Part shown: one piece after another, positions 39,414 to 51,406 of the stretch
How the letters are laid out: each line of letters opens with the position of its first letter
Numbering within the stretch: position 1 is the stretch's first letter
NCBI GenBank assembly: GCA_963817895.1
Contig: CAWFQB010000004.1
Coordinates: forward strand, 448,001 to 512,000
Length of the DNA stretch: 64,000 bases
Direction: 5' to 3'
Source of the DNA: an uncultured Chthonomonadaceae bacterium
GTDB taxonomy: Bacteria; Armatimonadota; Chthonomonadetes; Chthonomonadales; Chthonomonadaceae
The notes under the pieces: model-generated
The model's database searches: none
Told to the model about the DNA's origin: nothing
Seen by the model: only the letters and a program-made list of their open reading frames with translations
Position numbers and translations under genes: made by a program

Positions 39414-40175
39414 CTAACTGCCACCCTGTAACGCCGCAATTATCGCGAGCAGCCGCGCATTCTCCGCGTCGGCGTTGTCTGCGCGTTGGACTGCTTCATT
39501 GGCGCGTTGCGCTTCTTGCTCGGCGCGTTGCGTTGCTTCATTAGCGCGTTGCGCTTCCATATCCACGCGCTGCATGGCTTCCAGAGGCGTGAGCAGCACA
39601 ATATCGCGAATGGGATCATACAGGCGCAACGTGTTGCCTTCCAGCATCAAATCAAGCCCTAACTGCTCACTGCGCATCCGGTTCTCTACCAGAGGAATGG
39701 CCACATAGTGGCCTTCCACCAGCCTGTAACCTTGCAGGCGCGGGCGCAGGTAATCCCCTGTTGGATCGAACATGAAATATTCCGGCACGCGCAGAATACG
39801 CTCGTACATCGGACGCTTCCGGTCTGTATCCTGCCGCCTTGTCTTTTTAGACGTTATCTCAAAGACTACGTTCGGCGTCCTGCCATTCTCTTTCCAGACC
39901 ATGAATGTGTCGCGTTCGTGTTTGGGTACATCGAACACCACATAGCAGTCCGGCGACACGACCGCGTGAGGGTTGCCCTGCTCGAAGTACAGAAAGTTGT
40001 TGCCGGCCACATAGATATTCGGATCGTCGGCATAATGCGCCGCCAGCCCGTTAATCATGTAAAACATCTGATTCAAGTGAATATCGGTTTCTGCTATTGG
40101 TTTGCCGTCACTCGTCGGATACATATCGTCCTCATTACGAGGGCGTTTGGAACGGAGTGGAATCGTCGCAGTCAT
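39414..40175 (-). CDS. Uma2 family endonuclease with coiled-coil tail
   Basis: YPTSDGKPIAET..H, VSPDCYVV, VFEITS, VPEYFMFDP; EAQRANEA repeats. Confidence 0.9.
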   Translation of the reverse strand: MTATIPLRSKRPRNEDDMYPTSDGKPIAETDIHLNQMFYMINGLAAHYADDPNIYVAGNNFLYFEQGNPHAVVSPDCYVVFDVPKHERDTFMVWKENGRTPNVVFEITSKKTRRQDTDRKRPMYERILRVPEYFMFDPTGDYLRPRLQGYRLVEGHYVAIPLVENRMRSEQLGLDLMLEGNTLRLYDPIRDIVLLTPLEAMQRVDMEAQRANEATQRAEQEAQRANEAVQRADNADAENARLLAIIAALQGGS

Positions 40176-40240
40176 CAGCGTTTCTCCTCGACATTCGCGG
40201 GTAGTTCAGAATTCAAGGCGATAGTGTCCCGCATTTGGCT

Positions 40241-41212
40241 TCAAAGTTCGGCCAGAAAGTCGAAAATGCGGTCATTGCATCCGGGCAGTCCCTCGTGGCC
40301 GTAGTCCGGGTAGATGAGCAGGTCTTTGGGCGCGGTAATCTTATTGTACGCGGCGAACTGCGTGGACGGCGGGCAAATCGTGTCCATCAGGCCGACTGCC
40401 ATGAGAACGCGGGCGCGTATCCGATGCGCGAGATGCTGGTTGTCAATATAGCCAAGCCGGGTGAATATCTCAGCCTCGCGCTCGTGCAGCGGATCGAACT
40501 GGCGCAGATATGTTCGTAACTCCTCATACGCGCCCACTGCCAGATCCATTTCCCATACGCGTTGATAATCGCACAGGAACGGATAGACCGGCGCGGCGCG
40601 TTTGATGCGCGGTTCGAGGGCGGCGCAGGCAAGCGTCAATGCCCCGCCCTGTGAACCTCCGGTTGCGCCCACCCGGTTCGCGTCCACTTCGGGCAGGTTC
40701 ATCACGATGCCTGCCAGTTGCGCCGTGTCCAGATACACCTGCCGGAAATACAATTTTTCGGGCGCGTCGTCCAACCCGCGTATGATATGCCCGCGCAGCG
40801 TGTTGCCCCGAACGCCCTCGATGTTTTCCGACAATCCGCCCTGTCCGCGCGCGTCCAACGCGGCCACGCAAAAGCCCTGCCCGACGTAATTGAGTTTGTC
40901 CGCCCAATCGCCGCTGTTGCCGGAATACCCGTGAAACATCAGCGCGGCGGGACAACCGTTTGGATTTAGCGCGGGCGCGTTTTTGGGGCGCAGGTATTTG
41001 GCATGAACGCGCGACCCGCCCACGCCCGTAAAATACAGATCGAAACATTCGGCATGGGGCGCGTTCAGTTTATGCGGAACCAACTCCACGCGGGCGTCAA
41101 CGCTGCGCATCTCTTCCAGAGCGTGATCCCAGTACGCTTCCATATCGTCGGGGCGCGGGTTGCGGCCCTCGTACACTTTCAATCGTTCCAGCGGCATATC
41201 AACCTGTGGCAT
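40241..41212 (-). CDS. Acetylxylan esterase / cephalosporin-C deacetylase (CE7)
   Basis: FHGYSG, DARGQGG, GGSQGG nucleophile, D.ICPPSTQFAAYN, YGHE. Confidence 0.92.
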   Translation of the reverse strand: MPQVDMPLERLKVYEGRNPRPDDMEAYWDHALEEMRSVDARVELVPHKLNAPHAECFDLYFTGVGGSRVHAKYLRPKNAPALNPNGCPAALMFHGYSGNSGDWADKLNYVGQGFCVAALDARGQGGLSENIEGVRGNTLRGHIIRGLDDAPEKLYFRQVYLDTAQLAGIVMNLPEVDANRVGATGGSQGGALTLACAALEPRIKRAAPVYPFLCDYQRVWEMDLAVGAYEELRTYLRQFDPLHEREAEIFTRLGYIDNQHLAHRIRARVLMAVGLMDTICPPSTQFAAYNKITAPKDLLIYPDYGHEGLPGCNDRIFDFLAEL

Positions 41213-41734: not shown

Positions 41735-42667
41735 ATGCGCTGCCTTGCCGGGTTCCTGCTGCTGATACTGCTGTTGCTTTTTGCCGGGTGCGGGGGCAAC
41801 TTAGGCGCTCCGACCGGGCTTGTCGCCGCAACGGTGACGTTTACCGCAACCGTTCCGCCAATGCCCTCCCCGCAACCCAAATCGGTGCAACTGGCGATTG
41901 CGAAAGCGAACCTGAACGGCTCCGATTTCACGGTCACGCAGAATATCAATCCCACCAACGGCGGCATGTTTCCCGTTCCCGCGGACGGACACCCGCTTGG
42001 CCCCCTGCGTCCCATCACGACCACGCTGAGTTCACGCTTTTATTCCGGGCCGGATGCCAGCGGCGACGTGATTTCCAGCGCGAATGTACCCATTACGCTT
42101 CATTCCGGCCCCAACCAGTTCGGTTTCGCTTCCAATGCCGCTGTCGCGTCCATTGCCCTCGTTCCCGATCAATCGCTTGTTCTGGGACAGTCTCGCGCCC
42201 TCGATGCTATTTTGCGGGACAAGGACGGCAACTACGTGGCGGTTCCCGGCAGCCAGATCAGTTTTACGGTTACGCAGGGACAGGATGTGGTTCAGGCCGT
42301 CAACAACAACACGCAGCTGAAGGGCCTGAAACTCGGAACCGCGACCGTAACAATCACCGCGCAGGGTCTGACCAGCGCGCCGGGTACGGTTCAGGTGGTG
42401 GCGGGCGTGTTCATCAATCCGACAAGCGCGTCTGTCGCGCCCGGAGCGCAGCAGACGTTTACGGCCAGCCAGCCCGTCGTGTGGAGCATTCAGGAGGGCG
42501 CGGCGGGCGGAACCATCGTCACCAACACCGACGGCTCGGCAACGTATACCGCCCCGGTCGGCGCGGGAACCTTCCACGTCGTTGCCACCAGTCAGGCCAA
42601 CTCCACGCAATCGGCGACGGCAGCGGTCACGGTGCAGTCCGGCACGGGCGGCTTCATTATTCAATAG
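41735..42667 (+). CDS. Lipoprotein with Ig-like domains (surface locus gene 1)
   Basis: MRCLAGFLLLILLLLFAGC lipobox; Big_2-like domain; one WSIQEG..GG...YTAP...G.FHVVATSQA repeat; tail GTGGFIIQ. Confidence 0.85.
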   Translation: MRCLAGFLLLILLLLFAGCGGNLGAPTGLVAATVTFTATVPPMPSPQPKSVQLAIAKANLNGSDFTVTQNINPTNGGMFPVPADGHPLGPLRPITTTLSSRFYSGPDASGDVISSANVPITLHSGPNQFGFASNAAVASIALVPDQSLVLGQSRALDAILRDKDGNYVAVPGSQISFTVTQGQDVVQAVNNNTQLKGLKLGTATVTITAQGLTSAPGTVQVVAGVFINPTSASVAPGAQQTFTASQPVVWSIQEGAAGGTIVTNTDGSATYTAPVGAGTFHVVATSQANSTQSATAAVTVQSGTGGFIIQ

Positions 42668-42750
42668 CCGCCTGTACAGAATTTTTGAACCGCAAAGAAG
42701 CAAAGACAGCAAAGAAATAGCAAGGGAAGAAAAGCAAGGAAACAACGGTT

Positions 42751-44883
42751 ATGAAGCGCTTGATTGCCTGTATTCTTGTGGTTGGAATGGCGCTCCTGTT
42801 GAGTGGATGCGGCGGCGGGGGATCGGGGTCGAACGGCTCCTCATCCTCTACCACAGGCCGACAAACAGGACAGGCCACCTTTACCATCGCCTGGCCCACA
42901 TCCGGCAAACAGGCGGCCATCCAACCCGCCCCCGGTAAACCCGCGTCCCGCGTTTCGCGGGTGATACCGGATTCCGTCGCCAGCATCCGCATTACGATTA
43001 CAAACGGGGGTGTGATTGTCGGCGATAAACTGTTTCCGCGCCCATCACAGGGCGGGCAAACGAGCGCGGCTATCAGCGGCCTGCCTGCCGGTGTTCCGCT
43101 CACGGCAACGGTGTACGCTTTCCCCAACGCGGCGGGAACCGGCGTTCCGGTCGCGCAGGCGTCCATTCCCATTGCCATTGTCGCCAACCAGAACACGCAG
43201 GCTCCCACGATTACGCTCGACAGCGCGATTAACCATGTGGATGTGACGCCGGGTACGCTGCTTGCCGCCGGCCAAAGTGTTACGGTTTCTGCGGGCCAGA
43301 CCCTATCCCTTACAGTCGGGCAAACTCTTCCCCTTGTCGCCACCCCCCGCGACAGCTCCAACAACGTCGTGCTGATCGCGCCCGGCAATCTGACGTGGGC
43401 TTCCAACAATGCCGCCGTTGCGATTGACCCGGCTTCGGGCGTCATCACGGCGAAACAGCCCGGCGCGGCCAACATCGTGGCAACCGTGAAAGTGGCGAAC
43501 GGCGATCCCGGCATCGCGTCCCCCGCCTTTCCGGTTGTCGTCCATGTCAACATCGCCTTTAATCCCACTGCGGTTGTTATGACCATCGGGCAAAGCGTGA
43601 CCTTTTCCGCCACGCTCACGCCTGCGGGCAGTGGCGGCGTCACGTACAGCGTTCAGGAGGGGAGTTCGGGCGGCAGCGTCAACCCGTCTACGGGAGCCTA
43701 TACCGCCCCCGGCACAGCCGGAACGTACCACCTCGTAGCCACCAGTCAGGCCGATCCAAGCCAGAGCGCGACAGCAACTATCGTGGTGCAGGAAGCGGCT
43801 CACGCGGTTGTCACTGCCAGCCTGCAATTCGCCACCATCACGCCGCAAAGTTCTCTCACTCTTGCCGCGTCCGTGCAGGGCAAGACCAATACGGGCGTCG
43901 CGTGGAGCATACAGGAGGGCGCGGCGGGCGGAACCCTGACAGCCGATGCCAGCGGAACCGAAACCTACACCGCCTCGAACAACCCCGGCATTTATCACAT
44001 CGTCGCCACCAGTCAGGCCGATCCGTCGCAGGCAGCCGTATCCACGATTGTCGTTCAATTCGCGCCTGCCGCCATCTACTCCACCCTGAGCGCGGCCACT
44101 CTTGCCCCGCAAACAAATGTGACGCTGCGGGCCATTGTCGCCAACCAGACAAGTACGGGCGTGACGTATACCATTCAGGAGGGCAGCGCAGGCGGCATCC
44201 TGACCGCGAACCAGGACGGAACCGAAACCTATACCGCGCCGGGTACAGCAGGCACGTACCACATTGTCGCCACCAGTCAGGCCAATCCTTCGCTTGTGGC
44301 GGTTTCCACAATCACGGTTCTGGGCCAGGCGGGAGCCGCCATCCATCCGAACCTGACGGCTGCGATTGTGTTCCCGCAAAGCGCCCTGACGCTGCGAACT
44401 ATCGTGACCGGCTACGCGAATACGGGCGTGACCTATACCATTCAGGAGGGCGCGAGTGGCGGAACTCTGGTTGCGAACCCGGATGGAACTGAAACCTACA
44501 CGTCGCCGAACACGGCGGGAACCTATCACATCATGGCGGTCAGTCAGGCCGATAATACGCTTGTTGCTGTGATCCCGATCTCTGTAACGGGAAGCCAGTC
44601 AGCAGTGATTATCATTCCGCCCACAGTGACGCTTACCTTGCAGCAAACCACGTCGTTCTGCGCGGCTGTCGCCAATATGATCAACAATACGGTTACGTGG
44701 AGTATTCAGGAGGGCGCGAGTGGGGGCGCGTTGTCAGGGCAGGCGGGCAACACAACCAACTATACGGCTCCCACCACGCCGGGAACCTATCACCTGATTG
44801 CCACCAGCCAGGCGAACGGGGCATTGCAGGCAACCGCAACAATCACAGTGAAAGCGGGCGCGCTCAACGTCACGGTAAATTAG
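42751..44883 (+). CDS. Large lipoprotein with Big_2-like domain and five tandem Ig-like repeats (gene 2)
   Basis: LLSGC lipobox; five (S/T)(I/V)QEG..GG...YT(A/S)...G.YH..A.SQA repeats; tail GALNVTVN. Confidence 0.88.
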   Translation: MKRLIACILVVGMALLLSGCGGGGSGSNGSSSSTTGRQTGQATFTIAWPTSGKQAAIQPAPGKPASRVSRVIPDSVASIRITITNGGVIVGDKLFPRPSQGGQTSAAISGLPAGVPLTATVYAFPNAAGTGVPVAQASIPIAIVANQNTQAPTITLDSAINHVDVTPGTLLAAGQSVTVSAGQTLSLTVGQTLPLVATPRDSSNNVVLIAPGNLTWASNNAAVAIDPASGVITAKQPGAANIVATVKVANGDPGIASPAFPVVVHVNIAFNPTAVVMTIGQSVTFSATLTPAGSGGVTYSVQEGSSGGSVNPSTGAYTAPGTAGTYHLVATSQADPSQSATATIVVQEAAHAVVTASLQFATITPQSSLTLAASVQGKTNTGVAWSIQEGAAGGTLTADASGTETYTASNNPGIYHIVATSQADPSQAAVSTIVVQFAPAAIYSTLSAATLAPQTNVTLRAIVANQTSTGVTYTIQEGSAGGILTANQDGTETYTAPGTAGTYHIVATSQANPSLVAVSTITVLGQAGAAIHPNLTAAIVFPQSALTLRTIVTGYANTGVTYTIQEGASGGTLVANPDGTETYTSPNTAGTYHIMAVSQADNTLVAVIPISVTGSQSAVIIIPPTVTLTLQQTTSFCAAVANMINNTVTWSIQEGASGGALSGQAGNTTNYTAPTTPGTYHLIATSQANGALQATATITVKAGALNVTVN

Positions 44884-44896
44884 GAGCAACACGTTT

Positions 44897-46561
44897 ATGC
44901 GCGGTTTAACACAATCTATCTCCATGGCTCTGCTTCTGCCGCTTGCCGTATTTCTGTGCGGATGCGGCGGCGGAGCGGGCAAAAACGCGCTTGCCGGGGC
45001 GGGGCGCAAGGGCGGCAAGGGCAAGCTGACCGTAACCTTCAAATGGCCCACGCCCGCAAAGGCGGCAAAACGCCATCGCTTTATTCCGCTCGCGTCCATG
45101 AGCGTAGTTGTCAGCGTAAACGGGCCGACCGGCTACACGGCCACCTCCCCGCCCCTGACGCCAACCGGCAGCGGGGTGGGCGCGACAAGCACGTATACTT
45201 TCAATACCGTTCCCACCGGCACGATTGCGGTGACATCCAAAGCGTTTCCCAACCCGGATGGAACCGGAACCGCGCAGGCCGGCGCGACCAATCCCAACGT
45301 CACCATTCAGGCCGATCAGACTGCTAATCTGAATCTGACAATGGACACCACCATTGATAACGGTCACACGACGATTACCGGGTTAGGCCAACTAACGCGG
45401 ACGCGCGCTTCCAATTACACCGTCATCTTTCAGGATGGCGGCGGCAACACGGTACTGGTGGCTCCCAATACCGTCACATGGGGTACGGATGACCCTACCA
45501 TCGCCCTGGTGACAGTGGTTTCCCCGGATGGATTGACAGCAGCCGTATCGGGCATTTCGGCGCGTGAAACCAACATTCACGCCATCTATCAGGAACCCGG
45601 CGAGGCGGCGCAGTTTCCCAACAACCCGAACCGCTCCGGCAATTTCGACCTGAAAGTTTTGCCCATCATCTATATCTGCGACAATGGCAACAACAACATC
45701 GTGGAAATAGATAACATCAACGGGGATAATCGCGCCACACTGCCCCCCTCCGGCGCAGGCTATGCGTTTTCGCAGCCGCAGGGTGTTGCTGTTGATTCCG
45801 TTGGTGGGGTGTACGTGGCGGATACGGGCAACAATCGCCTGGTTCGGATCAACAGGGCGGACGGTTCGGATTTAGTGTCCGTGTCAACCCTCAACGGCAG
45901 GAACCTCAATACGCCGACCGCCGTTGCCATTGATAACAGCGACAACATCTATATACTGGACGACGGCAATTCCCGCGTAGTACAGTGTACCTACACCCCG
46001 AACAACTCGATCAATTTCGTACAGGAGTGGCCCATCAGTTCCGGGCTATTTCACAATGCCCTGACCTCTACGGACCCCGGAACGTTCACGTATACTGAAG
46101 TCCTTACGAGCCGCGCCAATGGCCCCTCACCCGCTATCGTTCAATTCGACGGCTCGGCTTCCAGCGTTTTCCACGGGCAGGGCGTGGTTGCGCTGAAATT
46201 TCCCTGGGGCGTTGTCAACAACTCCGGCAGCCTGATTGTGGCCGACCGGGACGGCAACCAACTGCTTCAACTGGACGGGCAAGGCAGCAGCAACGGCATT
46301 ATCAACTTCGATACCATCACCGTCGCTTCCCGCCTCAACTCGTTCAATAATATCGCGCTGAACGCGCCTCGCGGACTCGCGGCGGACGGCTACAGCAACC
46401 TGTATATCGCGGACACGGGAAACCAACGCATCATCCAGAACTCCAATTTTATCCGCCTGGGGCTGTTTTCTTCCTCTCCCACGTATACCCCGTCCGGCGG
46501 TTCTGCGCTGAACGCTCCCTACGCCGTAGCCGTAGACCCGCCGGAACCGCCACGATTTTAA
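44897..46561 (+). CDS. Lipoprotein with Ig-like domain and C-terminal NHL beta-propeller (gene 3)
   Basis: LCGC lipobox; PQGVAVDS.G.VYVADTGNNR and PRGLAADG..NLYIADTGNQR NHL repeats. Confidence 0.88.
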   Translation: MRGLTQSISMALLLPLAVFLCGCGGGAGKNALAGAGRKGGKGKLTVTFKWPTPAKAAKRHRFIPLASMSVVVSVNGPTGYTATSPPLTPTGSGVGATSTYTFNTVPTGTIAVTSKAFPNPDGTGTAQAGATNPNVTIQADQTANLNLTMDTTIDNGHTTITGLGQLTRTRASNYTVIFQDGGGNTVLVAPNTVTWGTDDPTIALVTVVSPDGLTAAVSGISARETNIHAIYQEPGEAAQFPNNPNRSGNFDLKVLPIIYICDNGNNNIVEIDNINGDNRATLPPSGAGYAFSQPQGVAVDSVGGVYVADTGNNRLVRINRADGSDLVSVSTLNGRNLNTPTAVAIDNSDNIYILDDGNSRVVQCTYTPNNSINFVQEWPISSGLFHNALTSTDPGTFTYTEVLTSRANGPSPAIVQFDGSASSVFHGQGVVALKFPWGVVNNSGSLIVADRDGNQLLQLDGQGSSNGIINFDTITVASRLNSFNNIALNAPRGLAADGYSNLYIADTGNQRIIQNSNFIRLGLFSSSPTYTPSGGSALNAPYAVAVDPPEPPRF

Positions 46562-46658
46562 AGGTATCAGGTATCAGGTGTCAGGTGGCCTGATTTTTCC
46601 CGATTATCGCGGTTAAGATAATGAGGATCATGTACTGACACCTGATACCTGATACCTT
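46561..46658. repeat. Inverted heptamer-array hairpin (AGGTRTC units)
   Basis: Perfect 24-bp arms at 46561-46584 and 46635-46658; 50-nt spacer. Confidence 0.9.
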
Positions 46659-46676
46659 CCTTAAAGGAGACATGCC

Positions 46677-47342
46677 TTGCAGCGCAAACAGGGTTTACAC
46701 ATATTGGCGATGCTGATGCTTTGCCTGGGGCTTGCTCCCGCCGCGCGCGCGCAATTTGCCGGCGGCAGCGCGCTTGTCCGATTTGACGCGACGCGCAAAG
46801 AGCAAACAAGAGTATATGGCGCATTCGACGTTTATCCGTTTGCGCCGTTTACCACTGGTGGCAATTTTGCGAATGGTTCTTCCGGCACACAGACGAATTT
46901 CGGCGCGCTCATTGCGACCAACATCGGAATCAAACCGGCGAAATCGCGCAATGCCGTGGAAGTTGGGGGCTGGTTTTGGACGCGGGGCGGTTCCAGTCTG
47001 AGCCAATACCATATACGGGGATTTTTCACGCCCGAATTCGGCGTTCAATTCAGCTATTTGCAATCCTCGCGCGCTCCCGGCGCGGCATACACGGCGTTTT
47101 TTGTTTATGACCTGCTTTCCACCCGCGTCAATCCGCAGTCCACGCGCCACTGGTCTATTGAAGGCGGTCTGGGCGGCTTCTTCGATCTTGCGGCGGGACG
47201 CAGCACGTCTTCCGTCACCATGTACGTGCAGGGCAGCTACCAATTGGTCGGCAATCTCAGCGCCAATGCCGGTATCTGGTATCTGCGCGACCGCTCCGAC
47301 GACCTGAACCGCTTTACCGTTGGCTTAGGGTACAATTTCTGA
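46677..47342 (+). CDS. Putative small outer-membrane beta-barrel protein (gene 4)
   Basis: Signal peptide ending ARA, alternating amphipathic strands, C-terminal beta-signal FTVGLGYNF. Confidence 0.7.
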   Translation: MQRKQGLHILAMLMLCLGLAPAARAQFAGGSALVRFDATRKEQTRVYGAFDVYPFAPFTTGGNFANGSSGTQTNFGALIATNIGIKPAKSRNAVEVGGWFWTRGGSSLSQYHIRGFFTPEFGVQFSYLQSSRAPGAAYTAFFVYDLLSTRVNPQSTRHWSIEGGLGGFFDLAAGRSTSSVTMYVQGSYQLVGNLSANAGIWYLRDRSDDLNRFTVGLGYNF

Positions 47343-47349
47343 AATTCTT

Positions 47350-47512
47350 GTTAGCCGCGAATGAACGCGAATAAACGCAAATGAGAGACAAAAATATTCA
47401 ACGCTGTTTGCTGCCCTATGTTTTTTTTGCAGCCCGCTATATTTATACGTGGATGCTGACTGTTTGTAACACTCGGCCCATTCGCGTGTATTCGCGTGTA
47501 TTCGCGGCTAAC
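47350..47512. repeat. Inverted decamer-array hairpin (CGCGAATRMA units) overlapping the caspase 5' end
   Basis: 34-bp arms at 47350-47383 and 47479-47512 with 4 mismatches; the left-arm sequence recurs at ~21661-21690. Confidence 0.85.
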
Positions 47513-50500
47513 CTTGCATTTTTCCTCTGCTTCACTCTGGCAAACGCGGCGTGGAGTGACGAGGCTCCGATTCTGCGCGTCAATCCGGGCGGGCATACCG
47601 CGCAGGTGCGGGCGGTGCAGTTCACGCCGGATGGACAGCAGTTGATTTCCGCCGGGTTCGACAAAGTGGCGCGGGTCTGGAATTTGCGGACGGGGCGGCA
47701 AAGCGCGATACGGTTTCAGATCGGGCCGGATTTGGACGGGGCCGTAAAATCCGCGGTGATTTCCCCCGACTCGGCTTCGCATCTGCTCGCGCTGGGCCTG
47801 ACGAGTTCGCACGGCAACATTCTGCTGCTGGATTACACAACGGGCAAACTGGTCGGCAAACTGAGCGGCCACGCGGCCCGCATCCAGACCGCGCATGGCG
47901 ATATTCTGAATACCATCACGGGCCTTGCGTTCTCGGGTGACGGCAAAACGCTGGCATCGTGCGACACGGACGGAACTGTTCGATTGTGGGACGTTGCCGG
48001 ACAGAAATCGCTGCACGAGTGGTCATTAAAGGATCGGCAATCCCGCCCGTATCTTGCCGGGATCGCCCTTTCGCCGGACGGTTCGCAGCTTGCGGTCGCC
48101 AGCAATCATGAAACAACCCGCAACGCTTTCAGCGGGGATGTGCTTGTGTGGGACACGCATACTTTCAAGCAGACGCAAAAATGGCAGTGGCGCGATTTAA
48201 TCAACTGTATTGCCTGGTCGTCGCAGAACGCGCTCGCGTTCGGCAGCCGGGACGGAACCATTCAAATCTGGAACGCCCGAACCGCTTCCAAACCCGAACG
48301 CCTGCCCCGCCAGAAAGATACGGTTGTGTGCCTCGCGTTCAGCCCGGACGGGCGCGAACTGCTCAGTGGCGGTGGCGAAGGCGGGCAGGATTTGTCGGCA
48401 AGCGTATGGACCGGTCCCGATTTCCACCTTACCCGTACCTATCTCACTCATGCCGCGCCGATTTTCGCCTGCGCCCTTGCCCCGGACGGAGCGCAGGCTG
48501 CAACCGGCGATCTGTTCGGAACCATTCACGTCTGGAAAACCGATACCGGTGATGAAGTTCGCGCTTTGCAGGGAACCGGCAAGCCTGTGTTCGCCGTCGC
48601 CTGGTCGCCGGACAACGCGCAGGTCGCCTGGAACACGACGTTCAAAAGCGCGAAACTGGAAGCCGGGTTCGATCTGTCCCGCGCCGTACCCGCCGATGCG
48701 TTCGACCCGACGCTGCCCTGGAAGGGTGGGGAAACGCAGGGCGCGGGCGGTCAAATCAACATCGCTTTCGACAACGCCAGCCTGACAATGGGGGAGAAAC
48801 CCGGCGGCAAGGGCGGCAACCCGAAGCGTATTTCCGCGCAAACCGGCGATCTGTTCCGTTGCGCCACATATGCCCCGGAAGGCGGCGTAATTGTCGGCTC
48901 GGATCAGTATCTCGCGCTGTACGCCAAACCGGACGGCCCGCCCACGCGCCTGTTTGAGGGACACGAAGGCCCCGTCACTGCGGTTGCCGTTTCACCCAAC
49001 GGCAAATTTCTGGCCTCCGCTTCGATGGATCAGACCGTTCGCGTCTGGAGTCTCGACCCCAAAGACGAGGTTGTCGTTCTTGGGCGGCGCGTTGTCCGTC
49101 CCCTGCTGTCCATTTTTCAGGCCAACGACGATGATTGGGTGGCATGGACGCCGCAGGGGTATTACAACGCTTCGGCAACGGGCGACCGCTTGATCGGCTG
49201 GCACGTCAATCACGGCCTGGACAAACTGCCCGACTACTATTCCGCCGACCGGTTCGCGCCCCTGCTGTACCGCCCGGACATCATCTTTTACCAGTTCAAA
49301 ACTGGCAGCCTTGTCGAAGCCTTGCAGGAAGCGGACAAGGCGCGGGGCAAGCAGACCGTTGCCTACGACATCAATCAGGATTTAACCCGCCTCGCCCCGC
49401 GTCCCGTCGCGATTCAGTTTCCCGCCGAAGGCAGCGCTGTAGACAGCCCGGAACTGATAATAGGCGTGAAGTACGAGGGCAACGCGCAGAAAAGCGTCAG
49501 CGTGGGCGCGGTCGTGCTGGAAGCGCCAAGCGCGCGCAGCGTTGTCGAAGTGGATGCGGGCGCGGCGGCTAACGGGCAGAAACTCACAGTTCCCCTTGTG
49601 CCGGGACGCAACACGATTCGCGTTTATGCCGTCAATGCGCAGGGGGTGCGCGGCCTGGCTTCGGAACTACACGTCACCTACAACGCGCCCGCCGGTGAAG
49701 AATCCGGCCCGCATTTCGACACGCTGCATCTGCTGACAGTGGGCATCGGCAAATTCCCGAAACTGGATGAAAAGTGGCAGTTAGGGTACACCACGCAGGA
49801 CGCCAAAGCCGTAGACGCCCTGTACCGCGCCCAACAGGACAAACTGTTCAGCCATGTAGACGCGAAATCCCTGCTGGATTCAGAAGCGACGGGCGACAAC
49901 ATCATGCGATCCATCGAAGACCTGAGCAAACAGGTCGGCAAAAAGAAGCGCGATTTCGTTGTCTTGTTCGTCTCCTCGCACGGTTTTCCCGGCGGCCCGG
50001 ACAAAACCTCGCTGTTCTTCGCGCCCTCCAACCTTGACGCTTCCAGTCAGGCGAAGATGGAGGAAACGGGCGTGGCGTGGAACAAGATCATCGAACAGTT
50101 AAAGCAGCTCCCCTGCCCCGTTCTGCTGCTGATTGACACCTGCCATTCCGGGGGCGTAGGCATTGAACTGTTCCGCTCGTTCGACCCGGTAAAAGGGCGC
50201 GGATTCGACCCGCGCCGCGAAGCCATCCGAGAAGCGACGGAAAGCGGCCTGTACGTCCTGTCCGCCTGCCGCCCCACCGAGCAGAGCCTGGAAACCGAAG
50301 CGTGGATGCACGGCGCGTTCACCAAAGCGTTTCTGGAAATGGGGCAGGCGCAAAATAAAGCCCGCGTAGACCCGGACGGCGTGATTATCTTCCGCAACGC
50401 CTTCGACTACGTGTTCAACCGCGTCCGCGAACTCGTCGCCCCCGGCAAGCAAAGCCCCAAACTCTACGAACCGCTCGACTCCGCCGGCGACCTACCCTTG

Positions 50501-50515
50501 CTGAAAGTGCGCTGA
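47381..50515 (+). CDS. Exported WD40-repeat protein with C-terminal peptidase C14 (caspase-like) domain (gene 5; start uncertain)
   Basis: Signal-like LAFFLCFTLANAAWS; many GH...WD/W blades; catalytic FVSSHG and IDTCHSG; LSAC...Q.S.E....HGAFT. Confidence 0.92.
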   Translation: MRDKNIQRCLLPYVFFAARYIYTWMLTVCNTRPIRVYSRVFAANLAFFLCFTLANAAWSDEAPILRVNPGGHTAQVRAVQFTPDGQQLISAGFDKVARVWNLRTGRQSAIRFQIGPDLDGAVKSAVISPDSASHLLALGLTSSHGNILLLDYTTGKLVGKLSGHAARIQTAHGDILNTITGLAFSGDGKTLASCDTDGTVRLWDVAGQKSLHEWSLKDRQSRPYLAGIALSPDGSQLAVASNHETTRNAFSGDVLVWDTHTFKQTQKWQWRDLINCIAWSSQNALAFGSRDGTIQIWNARTASKPERLPRQKDTVVCLAFSPDGRELLSGGGEGGQDLSASVWTGPDFHLTRTYLTHAAPIFACALAPDGAQAATGDLFGTIHVWKTDTGDEVRALQGTGKPVFAVAWSPDNAQVAWNTTFKSAKLEAGFDLSRAVPADAFDPTLPWKGGETQGAGGQINIAFDNASLTMGEKPGGKGGNPKRISAQTGDLFRCATYAPEGGVIVGSDQYLALYAKPDGPPTRLFEGHEGPVTAVAVSPNGKFLASASMDQTVRVWSLDPKDEVVVLGRRVVRPLLSIFQANDDDWVAWTPQGYYNASATGDRLIGWHVNHGLDKLPDYYSADRFAPLLYRPDIIFYQFKTGSLVEALQEADKARGKQTVAYDINQDLTRLAPRPVAIQFPAEGSAVDSPELIIGVKYEGNAQKSVSVGAVVLEAPSARSVVEVDAGAAANGQKLTVPLVPGRNTIRVYAVNAQGVRGLASELHVTYNAPAGEESGPHFDTLHLLTVGIGKFPKLDEKWQLGYTTQDAKAVDALYRAQQDKLFSHVDAKSLLDSEATGDNIMRSIEDLSKQVGKKKRDFVVLFVSSHGFPGGPDKTSLFFAPSNLDASSQAKMEETGVAWNKIIEQLKQLPCPVLLLIDTCHSGGVGIELFRSFDPVKGRGFDPRREAIREATESGLYVLSACRPTEQSLETEAWMHGAFTKAFLEMGQAQNKARVDPDGVIIFRNAFDYVFNRVRELVAPGKQSPKLYEPLDSAGDLPLLKVR

Positions 50516-50601: not shown

Positions 50602-51351
50602 TTACTGCATTGATGCGCTACAAGATACGCATTTTTTATTTTTCGCCTCCTGTTGATGATTGCAATAGCGACAACGAACCAGTTCTTCGCCAGGCTGAGG
50701 CAGGCCATATCCGTTCGCCATATTGCGCTTCGCTTGCTCGCGTCTGTCGAGTTTTTGTGTTTGCGCTTCAGCGCGGTGTTTCTCATGATCTTCCTGGGAG
50801 ATGGACAACTGCTGACCAATCGCCTTCTGAATTTCAGGAGCAATTTCATTCGGATTGAACCTGGATACCAGATAGGCGCGACCAGCATACAACCCCATGC
50901 TCACGACGAGAATAAGAGAACTCCCTGCCAGTTCCCATTTGCCTGCCGTACTGCTTTTAGCTGTTAAGGTCGCCACTCCTACAAGCATACCCACGATAGC
51001 CACCACCAGTGTCATACCGCCTGCTGTAATCATCCACCTCTTCTGTCTTCCTTTAGTAATCGGGATCATGTCAGCTTGTAACCAACCGCAAGAAGGGCAT
51101 GGGACTGGTTCAATAGCGCTATTAAGCACGGCATCAAGTATGTAATTGACATTATGGCGTTTAGGTTCCATTAGGCTGCTTAAAGGACCGGTTGCCTTAC
51201 GAGTTACCTGATAAACGTAACCAACCTGACACTTCTCGCACTTGACCGTTTTGGCGCGTGTGCCTGTAATGGTTCCCGTACTCGATTCGCCCTTGATTTT
51301 TGAAACACCTTCCGCCCCATACACTATCAATCTCAAGAGTAAACGAAGCAT
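50602..51351 (-). CDS. Hypothetical zinc-ribbon membrane protein
   Basis: CEKC, CPSCGW, two TM helices, C-terminal CRYC...CVSC; RBS gaggag. Confidence 0.7.
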   Translation of the reverse strand: MLRLLLRLIVYGAEGVSKIKGESSTGTITGTRAKTVKCEKCQVGYVYQVTRKATGPLSSLMEPKRHNVNYILDAVLNSAIEPVPCPSCGWLQADMIPITKGRQKRWMITAGGMTLVVAIVGMLVGVATLTAKSSTAGKWELAGSSLILVVSMGLYAGRAYLVSRFNPNEIAPEIQKAIGQQLSISQEDHEKHRAEAQTQKLDRREQAKRNMANGYGLPQPGEELVRCRYCNHQQEAKNKKCVSCSASMQ

Positions 51352-51406
51352 TATTCCTCTCCTCAAGGCGTCATGTAGATGCCACGCTATCCACAAGCAT
51401 GAAACG

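Follow-up and report, generated by a model that had tools for sequence, protein, structure and literature searches.

What might the five adjacent genes at 41735..50515 of the DNA analyzed here build, and which protease would mature their products? The whole stretch, hereafter the window, comprises 64,000 nucleotides from an uncultured Chthonomonadaceae bacterium of the phylum Armatimonadota (G000:C4:448001-512000, where G000 designates the organism's own genome), and positions are given in window coordinates. Three of the genes (g1-g3) encode predicted lipoproteins, the fourth (g4) a small beta-barrel-like protein, and the fifth (g5) a WD40-caspase. An earlier note on this sequence had read all five as one surface filament system with its own maturation protease. 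Our analysis of sequences and structure models indicates that g1-g3 probably form a surface chain whose subunits are linked by donor-strand exchange after cleavage by a protease, and that g4 and g5 are best explained as a separate barrel and caspase module that stayed attached to such loci within the genus.

In the mechanism we propose, g1, g2, and g3 would each be exported as a lipoprotein, as their lipoboxes suggest. An Arg-specific protease would then cut the loop that follows the first strand of g2 and g3, loss of this mid-sheet strand would open a groove, as two structure models suggest, and the 8-residue tail of the subunit nearer the cell would fill it. With no Arg at this place, g1 would keep its lipid, stay uncleaved, anchor the chain, and act as the first donor; g2 would serve as an extender of about seven domains, and g3 would cap the chain with an NHL propeller. 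The features on which this proposal draws are these:

41735..42667, forward strand: g1, 310 residues; predicted lipoprotein (lipobox C19) with a degenerate N-terminal domain (N-domain), a Big-type domain, one immunoglobulin (Ig) repeat, and a C-terminal tail
42641..42664, forward strand: g1 tail, 8 residues, candidate donor strand; its best match is the first strand of g2
42751..44883, forward strand: g2, 710 residues; predicted lipoprotein (lipobox C20) with a putative acceptor N-domain, a Big_2 domain, five Ig repeats, and a tail
42868..42897, forward strand: g2 first strand (A1), ending in Trp-Pro; a predicted strand with a mean predicted local distance difference test score (pLDDT) of 95 over the block
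42958..42963, forward strand: candidate cleavage site of g2 between R70 and V71, in a loop of pLDDT ~70
44857..44880, forward strand: g2 tail, 8 residues, candidate donor strand; its best match is the first strand of g3
44897..46561, forward strand: g3, 554 residues; predicted lipoprotein (lipobox C23) with a putative acceptor N-domain, a second beta domain, an NHL propeller, and no tail
45020..45049, forward strand: g3 first strand (A1), ending in Trp-Pro, assigned by sequence motif
45077..45082, forward strand: candidate cleavage site of g3 between R61 and F62, assigned by sequence motif
46677..47342, forward strand: g4, 221 residues; small protein resembling an outer-membrane beta-barrel, with a C-terminal Phe; probable part of the barrel and caspase module
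47381..50515, forward strand: g5, 1044 residues; WD40 repeats and a C14 (caspase-fold) peptidase; the true start may lie downstream of 47381

The sequence features described in the earlier note were recovered throughout. All five open reading frames (ORFs) lie on the forward strand, the lipobox cysteines of the three lipoproteins fall at the listed residues (by pattern match only), and the quoted strands GQATFTIAWP and GKLTVTFKWP begin at residue 40 of g2 and residue 42 of g3. Arg precedes the (V/F)IP motif in both proteins (R70 before VIPDS, R61 before FIPLAS); in g1, Trp-Pro is absent and the matching loop, which is Pro-rich, contains no Arg. Tails are present in g1 and g2, and g3 ends without one in NHL repeats (Pfam E value 2.8e-20). 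The WD40-C14 architecture of g5 likewise stands, with WD40 repeats recognized by Pfam and a C14 domain (E 6.5e-12) that contains His867 and Cys921.

The N-domain shared by g2 and g3 belongs to a large family. Matches number 13 in the organism's own genome, and the domain is present in 27 of 41 relatives and in 128 of 301 genomes across the phylum (counting matches at E up to 1e-8), and the family amounts to 2222 clusters at 50% identity. None of 30 members checked fell into a Pfam family, those of pilins included (the best match was DUF4493, in 3 of the 30 at E 0.004), and comparison with the sequences of solved structures in the Protein Data Bank (PDB) gave no match below E 0.07, again including pilins. 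The consensus consists of a lipobox (present in 141 of 150 representatives, by pattern match only), a Gly/Ser linker, a strand ending in Trp-Pro, a loop of variable length, Arg-Leu-Ile-Pro, and the rest of the sandwich. Conservation of the Arg, which the earlier note had set as a check, is high: of the 150 top-ranking sequences among the 2222 representatives, 144 have R directly ahead of the x-[IV]-P motif, 4 have K, and 1 has A, and the remaining sequence was mis-parsed and has R on inspection, although the search profile included the Arg and so inflates this count. We therefore rebuilt the profile without the first strand and loop. Among 102 lipoprotein members from fetched loci, 83 then had R and one had K, in a set that retains some bias since its loci were originally found with Arg-containing queries; the background frequency of Arg before the same motif is 8.2% of 3056 sites. 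The 18 members with neither residue include seven from a subfamily whose Arg is shifted by one or two places, six from another, distinct subfamily whose loop is long and basic, and five canonical members without the Arg, three of which carry a tail. The basic residue in the loop after the first strand is thus, as judged from sequence, a conserved candidate cleavage site.

The subfamily with the long basic loop stands somewhat apart. Its loci (G000:C2:527912-529788, termed L071, together with L072 and L073) contain two or three adjacent lipoproteins, each with the N-domain and one further domain, a Gly before x-Ile-Pro, and no tail. The L071 genes are preceded by genes that resemble, by eye, a membrane adenylate cyclase, a FecR-like protein, and a barrel.

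The C-terminal tails point to a donor function and to an order of subunits. We surveyed 202 non-redundant family members, of which 201 could be parsed and 46 were left unclassified; in 17 of the 201, a terminal Ig domain is trailed by 8-13 further residues, exactly 9 in 14 cases. Scored on a matrix built from first strands, these 17 tails had a median of 2.6 bits. The corresponding values were -14.7 for the 138 members with a different terminal domain, -15 for shuffled tails, and -16.8 for a set of 6166 genome ORFs; the C terminus of g3 scored -35. The g1 tail scores 11 against the first strand of g2 and -2 against that of g3, and for the g2 tail the BLOSUM score is 17 with the g3 strand and 9 with the strand of g2 itself. 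Across 21 adjacent gene pairs, a set that includes orthologous duplicates and frame fragments and in which the caller missed several tails, tails matched the next gene's strand better than permuted pairs did (10.8 vs 9.1, p 0.017); the match to a protein's own strand was close to permutation (9.4 vs 8.9, p 0.28), and the next gene's strand beat the own strand in 11 of 15 comparisons. As called, a tail gene is followed by a tail-less gene 17 times and by another tail gene 7 times, a tail-less gene precedes a tail gene 5 times, and neither gene has a tail in 28 pairs.

These patterns are modest evidence for a chain with a set order of anchor, extender, and tip rather than a homopolymer. The claim that g2 forms a self-polymerizing stalk is weakened because its tail fits the first strand of g3 better than its own, and a short chain of g1, g2, and g3 in that order appears somewhat likelier than a long g2 polymer. 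The proposed division of labor at the two ends fares better: g1, with a tail and no Arg, would suit an anchor, and g3, with no tail, a tip. In the g1 N-domain, the family profile recognizes the second half only (E 0.015), and because this match is faint and the loop is Pro-rich, we regard g1 as functionally akin to a group of lipoproteins that consist only of Ig repeats and a strand-like tail. Such proteins exist elsewhere, some of them adjoining tip-type genes (P0163, P0168, P0170, P0173, P0187, P0200, P0221, and P0236; further examples lie in L082, L122, and L128), and as donors without an acceptor they are candidate natural anchors.

Structure prediction is compatible with this arrangement. 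The model of g2 residues 36-265 has a mean pLDDT of 90.9, with an ordered first strand and the Arg in the less confident loop. In a wide structural search, its N-domain matched transthyretin-like folds, and the matches listed include five Bacteroidota pilin or pilin-like entries: Mfa3 (5nf4; Z 7.4, root-mean-square deviation 2.9, 95 residues aligned), the FimA1 prepilin (6jzk; Z 6.7, deviation 4.0, 97 aligned), 4q1z (Z 7.2), and 3liu and 4qdg (both Z 6.7). The pilin alignments begin at the first strand of the g2 model and at the N termini of the pilins. Mfa1, Mfa2, and Mfa4 are not among the matches listed, from which their exclusion does not follow, and a Foldseek search of the PDB returned Ig-type matches only. 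As to the likeness to type V pilins put forward in the earlier note, Mfa3 and FimA1 do align in the wide search, at scores not above those of unrelated folds. The second domain matches the Big_2-type domains of LigA, intimin, and SbsC (Z 8.5-12.4), with Pfam Big_2 below its cut-off. To represent the cleaved state we have a model of a three-domain paralogue from the same genome, starting at the residue after the Arg (pLDDT 95.9). In it, the two stretches expected to lie beside the deleted strand have lost their strand assignment, an indication that the first strand sits centrally in the sheet and that its loss would leave a central groove; the comparison is between different paralogues, g2 intact and this one strand-deleted, and uses confidence values and DSSP strings alone. 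Insertion of the tail into its own subunit was also considered and is not seen in this single-chain model. A fold search with the same model was filled by Ig domains and was uninformative on the N-domain.

The closest known counterpart is the type V pilus, with its FimA/Mfa1 stalk, FimB/Mfa2 anchor, and accessory pilins Mfa3-5 and FimC-E (PMC13655056; PMC12632263). Its pilins, like the predicted lipoproteins g1-g3, are lipoprotein precursors with an anchor that keeps its lipid, a role that g1 would fill here. They have a transthyretin-like N-domain, a fold with which the g2 model is compatible, and its first strand is followed by an Arg-bearing loop, as in g2 and g3 (PMC13655056; PMC12632263). 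Base and stalk subunits carry a C-terminal donor strand that the tip lacks, a distribution seen in g1-g3 as a sequence pattern. There are also differences. PMC13655056 presents type V pili as a feature of Bacteroidia alone, whereas the host here is an armatimonadote; the second domain is Big_2-like, with Ig repeats in varying number after it, rather than a transthyretin-like C-terminal domain; the candidate donor of about 8 residues is enough for the N-domain only; there is no significant sequence match to solved pilins or to Pfam pilin families; and the evidence leans toward short ordered chains. Because the second domain is not transthyretin-like and the organism lies outside Bacteroidia, we do not class the system as a type V pilus. 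Tandem Ig domains ending in a distal domain also recall the Big_2/Ig-repeat adhesins (intimin, invasin, and LigA) and Ig-rich surface layers (S-layers), but these are single chains that lack both the strand-loop-Arg N-domain and the strand-like tail.

Several observations weigh against a strand-exchanged chain. Unrelated folds match the g2 N-domain as well as or better than pilins do, including a rhamnogalacturonan lyase domain (1nkg, Z 8.1) and CnaB-type and FnIII domains (Z 6.5-7.6), with 6fwv at Z 7.6, and all Z scores, those of the pilins included, lie within the range that the tool calls common. Since unrelated proteins score as high, a transthyretin-like fold at such middling Z is compatible with pilin-type assembly and not diagnostic of it. 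Only 7 of the 17 tails exceed 3 bits on the first-strand matrix, with the g1 tail at -2.0 and the g2 tail at 1.7; among the classified members, those without a tail outnumber those with one by 138 to 17, and many N-domain loci consist of a lone tip-type gene that has the Arg and no visible donor. In the single-chain model of the mature paralogue, the tail is unpaired and not a strand (block mean pLDDT 85). The mixed make-up of the adjacent-pair set, the use of two paralogues in the groove comparison, and the occurrence of clostripain, the protease favored below, in 13 of 14 relatives without the N-domain count on the same side.

Turning to the remaining two genes, g4 resembles outer-membrane barrels, as the earlier note had claimed, with a language-model feature score of 0.95 to OMP_b-brl clusters (138-148 shared features); it has no match in Pfam or NCBIfam, and a C-terminal Phe is found in all four aligned g4 paralogues. 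The C14 domain of g5 (PF00656) scores 46.1 bits against a cut-off of 21.4, and its residues D807, H867, D919, and C921 are invariant across six aligned neighbors, so that the enzyme appears intact, with its His-Cys dyad present. By analogy with metacaspases, D807 and D919 may lie in an acidic S1 pocket that would confer Arg/Lys specificity. The dyad, the conserved Asp residues, and the WD40 repeats are shared with other bacterial WD40 ortho- and metacaspases; g5 differs in belonging to a clade that adjoins the small barrel gene. Signal peptides of g4 and g5 were judged by eye only.

How tightly this pair is tied to the lipoproteins depends on where one looks. The genus of this organism has six barrel loci in three genomes, each followed by a WD40-caspase, five of them after intact N-domain-family genes and one after a tail-like remnant. 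Paralogous caspase domains at these loci are only 28-32% identical, and the link of lipoprotein genes with barrel and caspase is, on this gene-level evidence, real and old within the genus. Outside it, a caspase or this barrel lies in the fetched flank of just 1 of 57 N-domain-family loci (in G284), flank lengths varying and many contigs being short. Conversely, none of 20 caspase-centered loci (17 from other genera, 3 from this one) contains an N-domain-family gene. The genomic association of lipoproteins and protease predicted in the earlier note thus stands within the genus and is weak beyond it. A C14 profile match is absent from 10 of the 27 genomes with the N-domain, 8 of them at least 90% complete, in a search that also missed g5 and is not fully sensitive. 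The barrel sits beside a caspase without N-domain-family genes in three genomes of other families (G049, G306, and G225) and occurs alone in three more genomes, and three other N-domain-family loci of the organism's own genome have no barrel or caspase neighbor. In a quick tree of 17 proteins, the WD40-caspases next to a barrel gene fall into one group, with or without lipoprotein-family genes nearby (Shimodaira-Hasegawa-like approximate likelihood ratio support 97, midpoint root). Because their pairing is independent of the lipoprotein genes, barrel and caspase would be primarily each other's partners.

Related loci vary in composition. In a paralogous locus of the same genome (L001, G000:C1:313448-325863), five lipoproteins of the family type are accompanied by a barrel whose gene is split over two frames, a WD40-caspase, another caspase, and a TPR protein, with a Pvc16_N and CarboxypepD_reg gene upstream. 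Another (L002, G000:C14:415326-422599) pairs barrel and WD40-caspase, preceded only by the tail-like remnant, with a TIR_2, NB-ARC protein carrying TPR-like repeats downstream. In G001 (L068:5255-17982), five strongly diverged lipoproteins, a barrel, and a WD40-caspase follow the order seen in the window, and the family profile catches one of the lipoproteins only. The G284 locus (L125:9202-15463), from another family, comprises a tail gene without Arg, a tip gene, two small barrel-like genes, a separate WD40 gene, and a caspase gene. Exported proteins also form a conserved cluster, unlinked to the lipoprotein family, that includes a caspase of ~500 residues and a WD40-caspase of ~1000 residues (L088, L089, L091, L096, and L098).

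If g5 is not the maturase, the most plausible substitute is a clostripain (C11). This protease occurs in 40 of 41 relatives, including all 27 that have the N-domain, and the relatives without the domain show that its presence is not specific to it. A lipobox is found by pattern in 18 of 20 fetched C11 loci and by eye in one more, mostly with a Cys-Gly-run start like that of the subunits. The organism's own genome has an intact C11 gene 25 kb downstream of g5 and outside the window (L070, G000:C4:523594-525702) and a C11 lipoprotein copy split over several frames (L146, G000:C1:75191-76765), as happens to several genes of this assembly; C11 genes are not linked to N-domain-family genes. In Bacteroidales, clostripain lipoproteins such as fragipain and doripain are clan CD proteases of the cell surface, where they process both lipoproteins and pilins, and a Bacteroides surface clostripain is described as cleaving pilins (PMC12632263). 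Those of the armatimonadote relatives mostly carry a lipobox as well; no clostripain gene lies in the window. The gingipain family C25 was also considered as maturase and rejected, as it occurs in 8 of the 41 genomes and not in the organism's own. On balance, we lean slightly toward the phylum's housekeeping clostripain lipoprotein as the cutter; g5 is a distinctly less likely candidate, and some other protease a little less likely again. The roles given to g4 and g5 in the earlier note, pilus translocator and dedicated maturase, both lose ground because their module travels alone in other families, the lipoproteins mostly occur without it (56 of 57 outside loci), and clostripain is nearly universal.

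The full five-gene system of the earlier note, self-contained, with a long g2 filament, g4 as exporter or scaffold, and g5 as dedicated maturase, accordingly seems unlikely as a whole. It would account for the unbroken succession of barrel and WD40-caspase at the six loci of the genus, for a dyad and two Asp residues kept invariant in such diverged caspases, and for the recurrence of a similar layout in G284; moreover, non-animal C14 enzymes are known to cleave after Arg/Lys (PMC5756287). It sits poorly with the near absence of barrel and caspase from outside loci, the caspase-centered loci without family genes, the N-domain genomes without a C14 match, the module's separate existence in both directions, and the preference of the g2 tail for g3. 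A barrel of ~200 residues also seems too small for the passage of folded Ig chains, which counts against it further.

Two readings dispense with assembly altogether. Regulated shedding we consider improbable; in this reading, cleavage at the Arg loop would set free surface lipoproteins or their propeller domains, and the tails would be no more than normal terminal strands or signals for sorting. Bacteroides clostripains do release many surface lipoproteins (PMC12632263), the dominant tail-less members often stand alone, and the tail is unpaired when a single chain is modeled. Yet cleavage beyond the first strand would open a hole in the sheet, where the Gly/Ser linker before the strand would offer a simpler release site. 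The tails, moreover, are fixed in length, strand-like, and largely absent from propeller-ending members, and they covary with the next gene. Still less probable, to the point of being very doubtful, is that no cleavage takes place and the Arg is structural, forming a salt bridge or contacting an export factor, in independent Ig-rich surface adhesins or S-layer components. The second and later domains do match Big_2, intimin, LigA, and S-layer domains (Z 8.3-12.4), and the Arg-containing search profiles do inflate the count among the 150 representatives. Against this, the Arg lies in a variable-length loop of lower confidence and is kept in most members found with the loop-free profile, its loss falls preferentially on tail-bearing members, and the tails would be left unexplained. 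A protease-triggered, strand-exchanged chain of g1-g3 remains the reading we favor.

The locus itself is compact, with gaps of 83, 13, 115, and 38 bases between successive genes. Promoter and terminator scans found 3 and 10 sites against 3.8 and 12.9 expected by chance, which says nothing on operon limits. Upstream of g1, on the opposite strand (39414-41212), lie an acetyl xylan esterase gene (AXE1) and a Uma2-family gene, with no sign of belonging to the system. A convergent ORF on the reverse strand (50602-51396) closes the locus; its 264-residue product is membrane-protein-like, with Cys pairs and no significant Pfam match.

Our literature search, which covered titles and the starts of abstracts, with most subscription journals outside its coverage, returned no description of such a system outside Bacteroidota, nothing linking "type V pili" with "Armatimonad," and no pilus-maturation role for bacterial WD40 C14 caspases. 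The Fimbriimonas genome paper assigns that organism's fimbriae to type IV-like genes (PMC4072686), so we do not use the phenotype as support. A wider picture, in which modular lipoprotein chains occur across the phylum, the 8-residue tail is a code for the next acceptor, tips are interchangeable, and a caspase maturase with its own outer-membrane barrel was recruited in this genus, is speculative and rather unlikely in its entirety. The chain proposed for g1-g3 nonetheless makes precise predictions, naming two new N termini, two tails, and two candidate proteases. If it is correct, strand-exchange assembly would be a general way to build surface appendages with varied spacer and tip modules, and a function would be on offer both for a large unnamed domain family and for the near-universal clostripain lipoprotein of the group. 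Were the caspase indeed recruited as maturase, the g2 and g3 lipoproteins would be the first constructive substrate for bacterial WD40-caspases.

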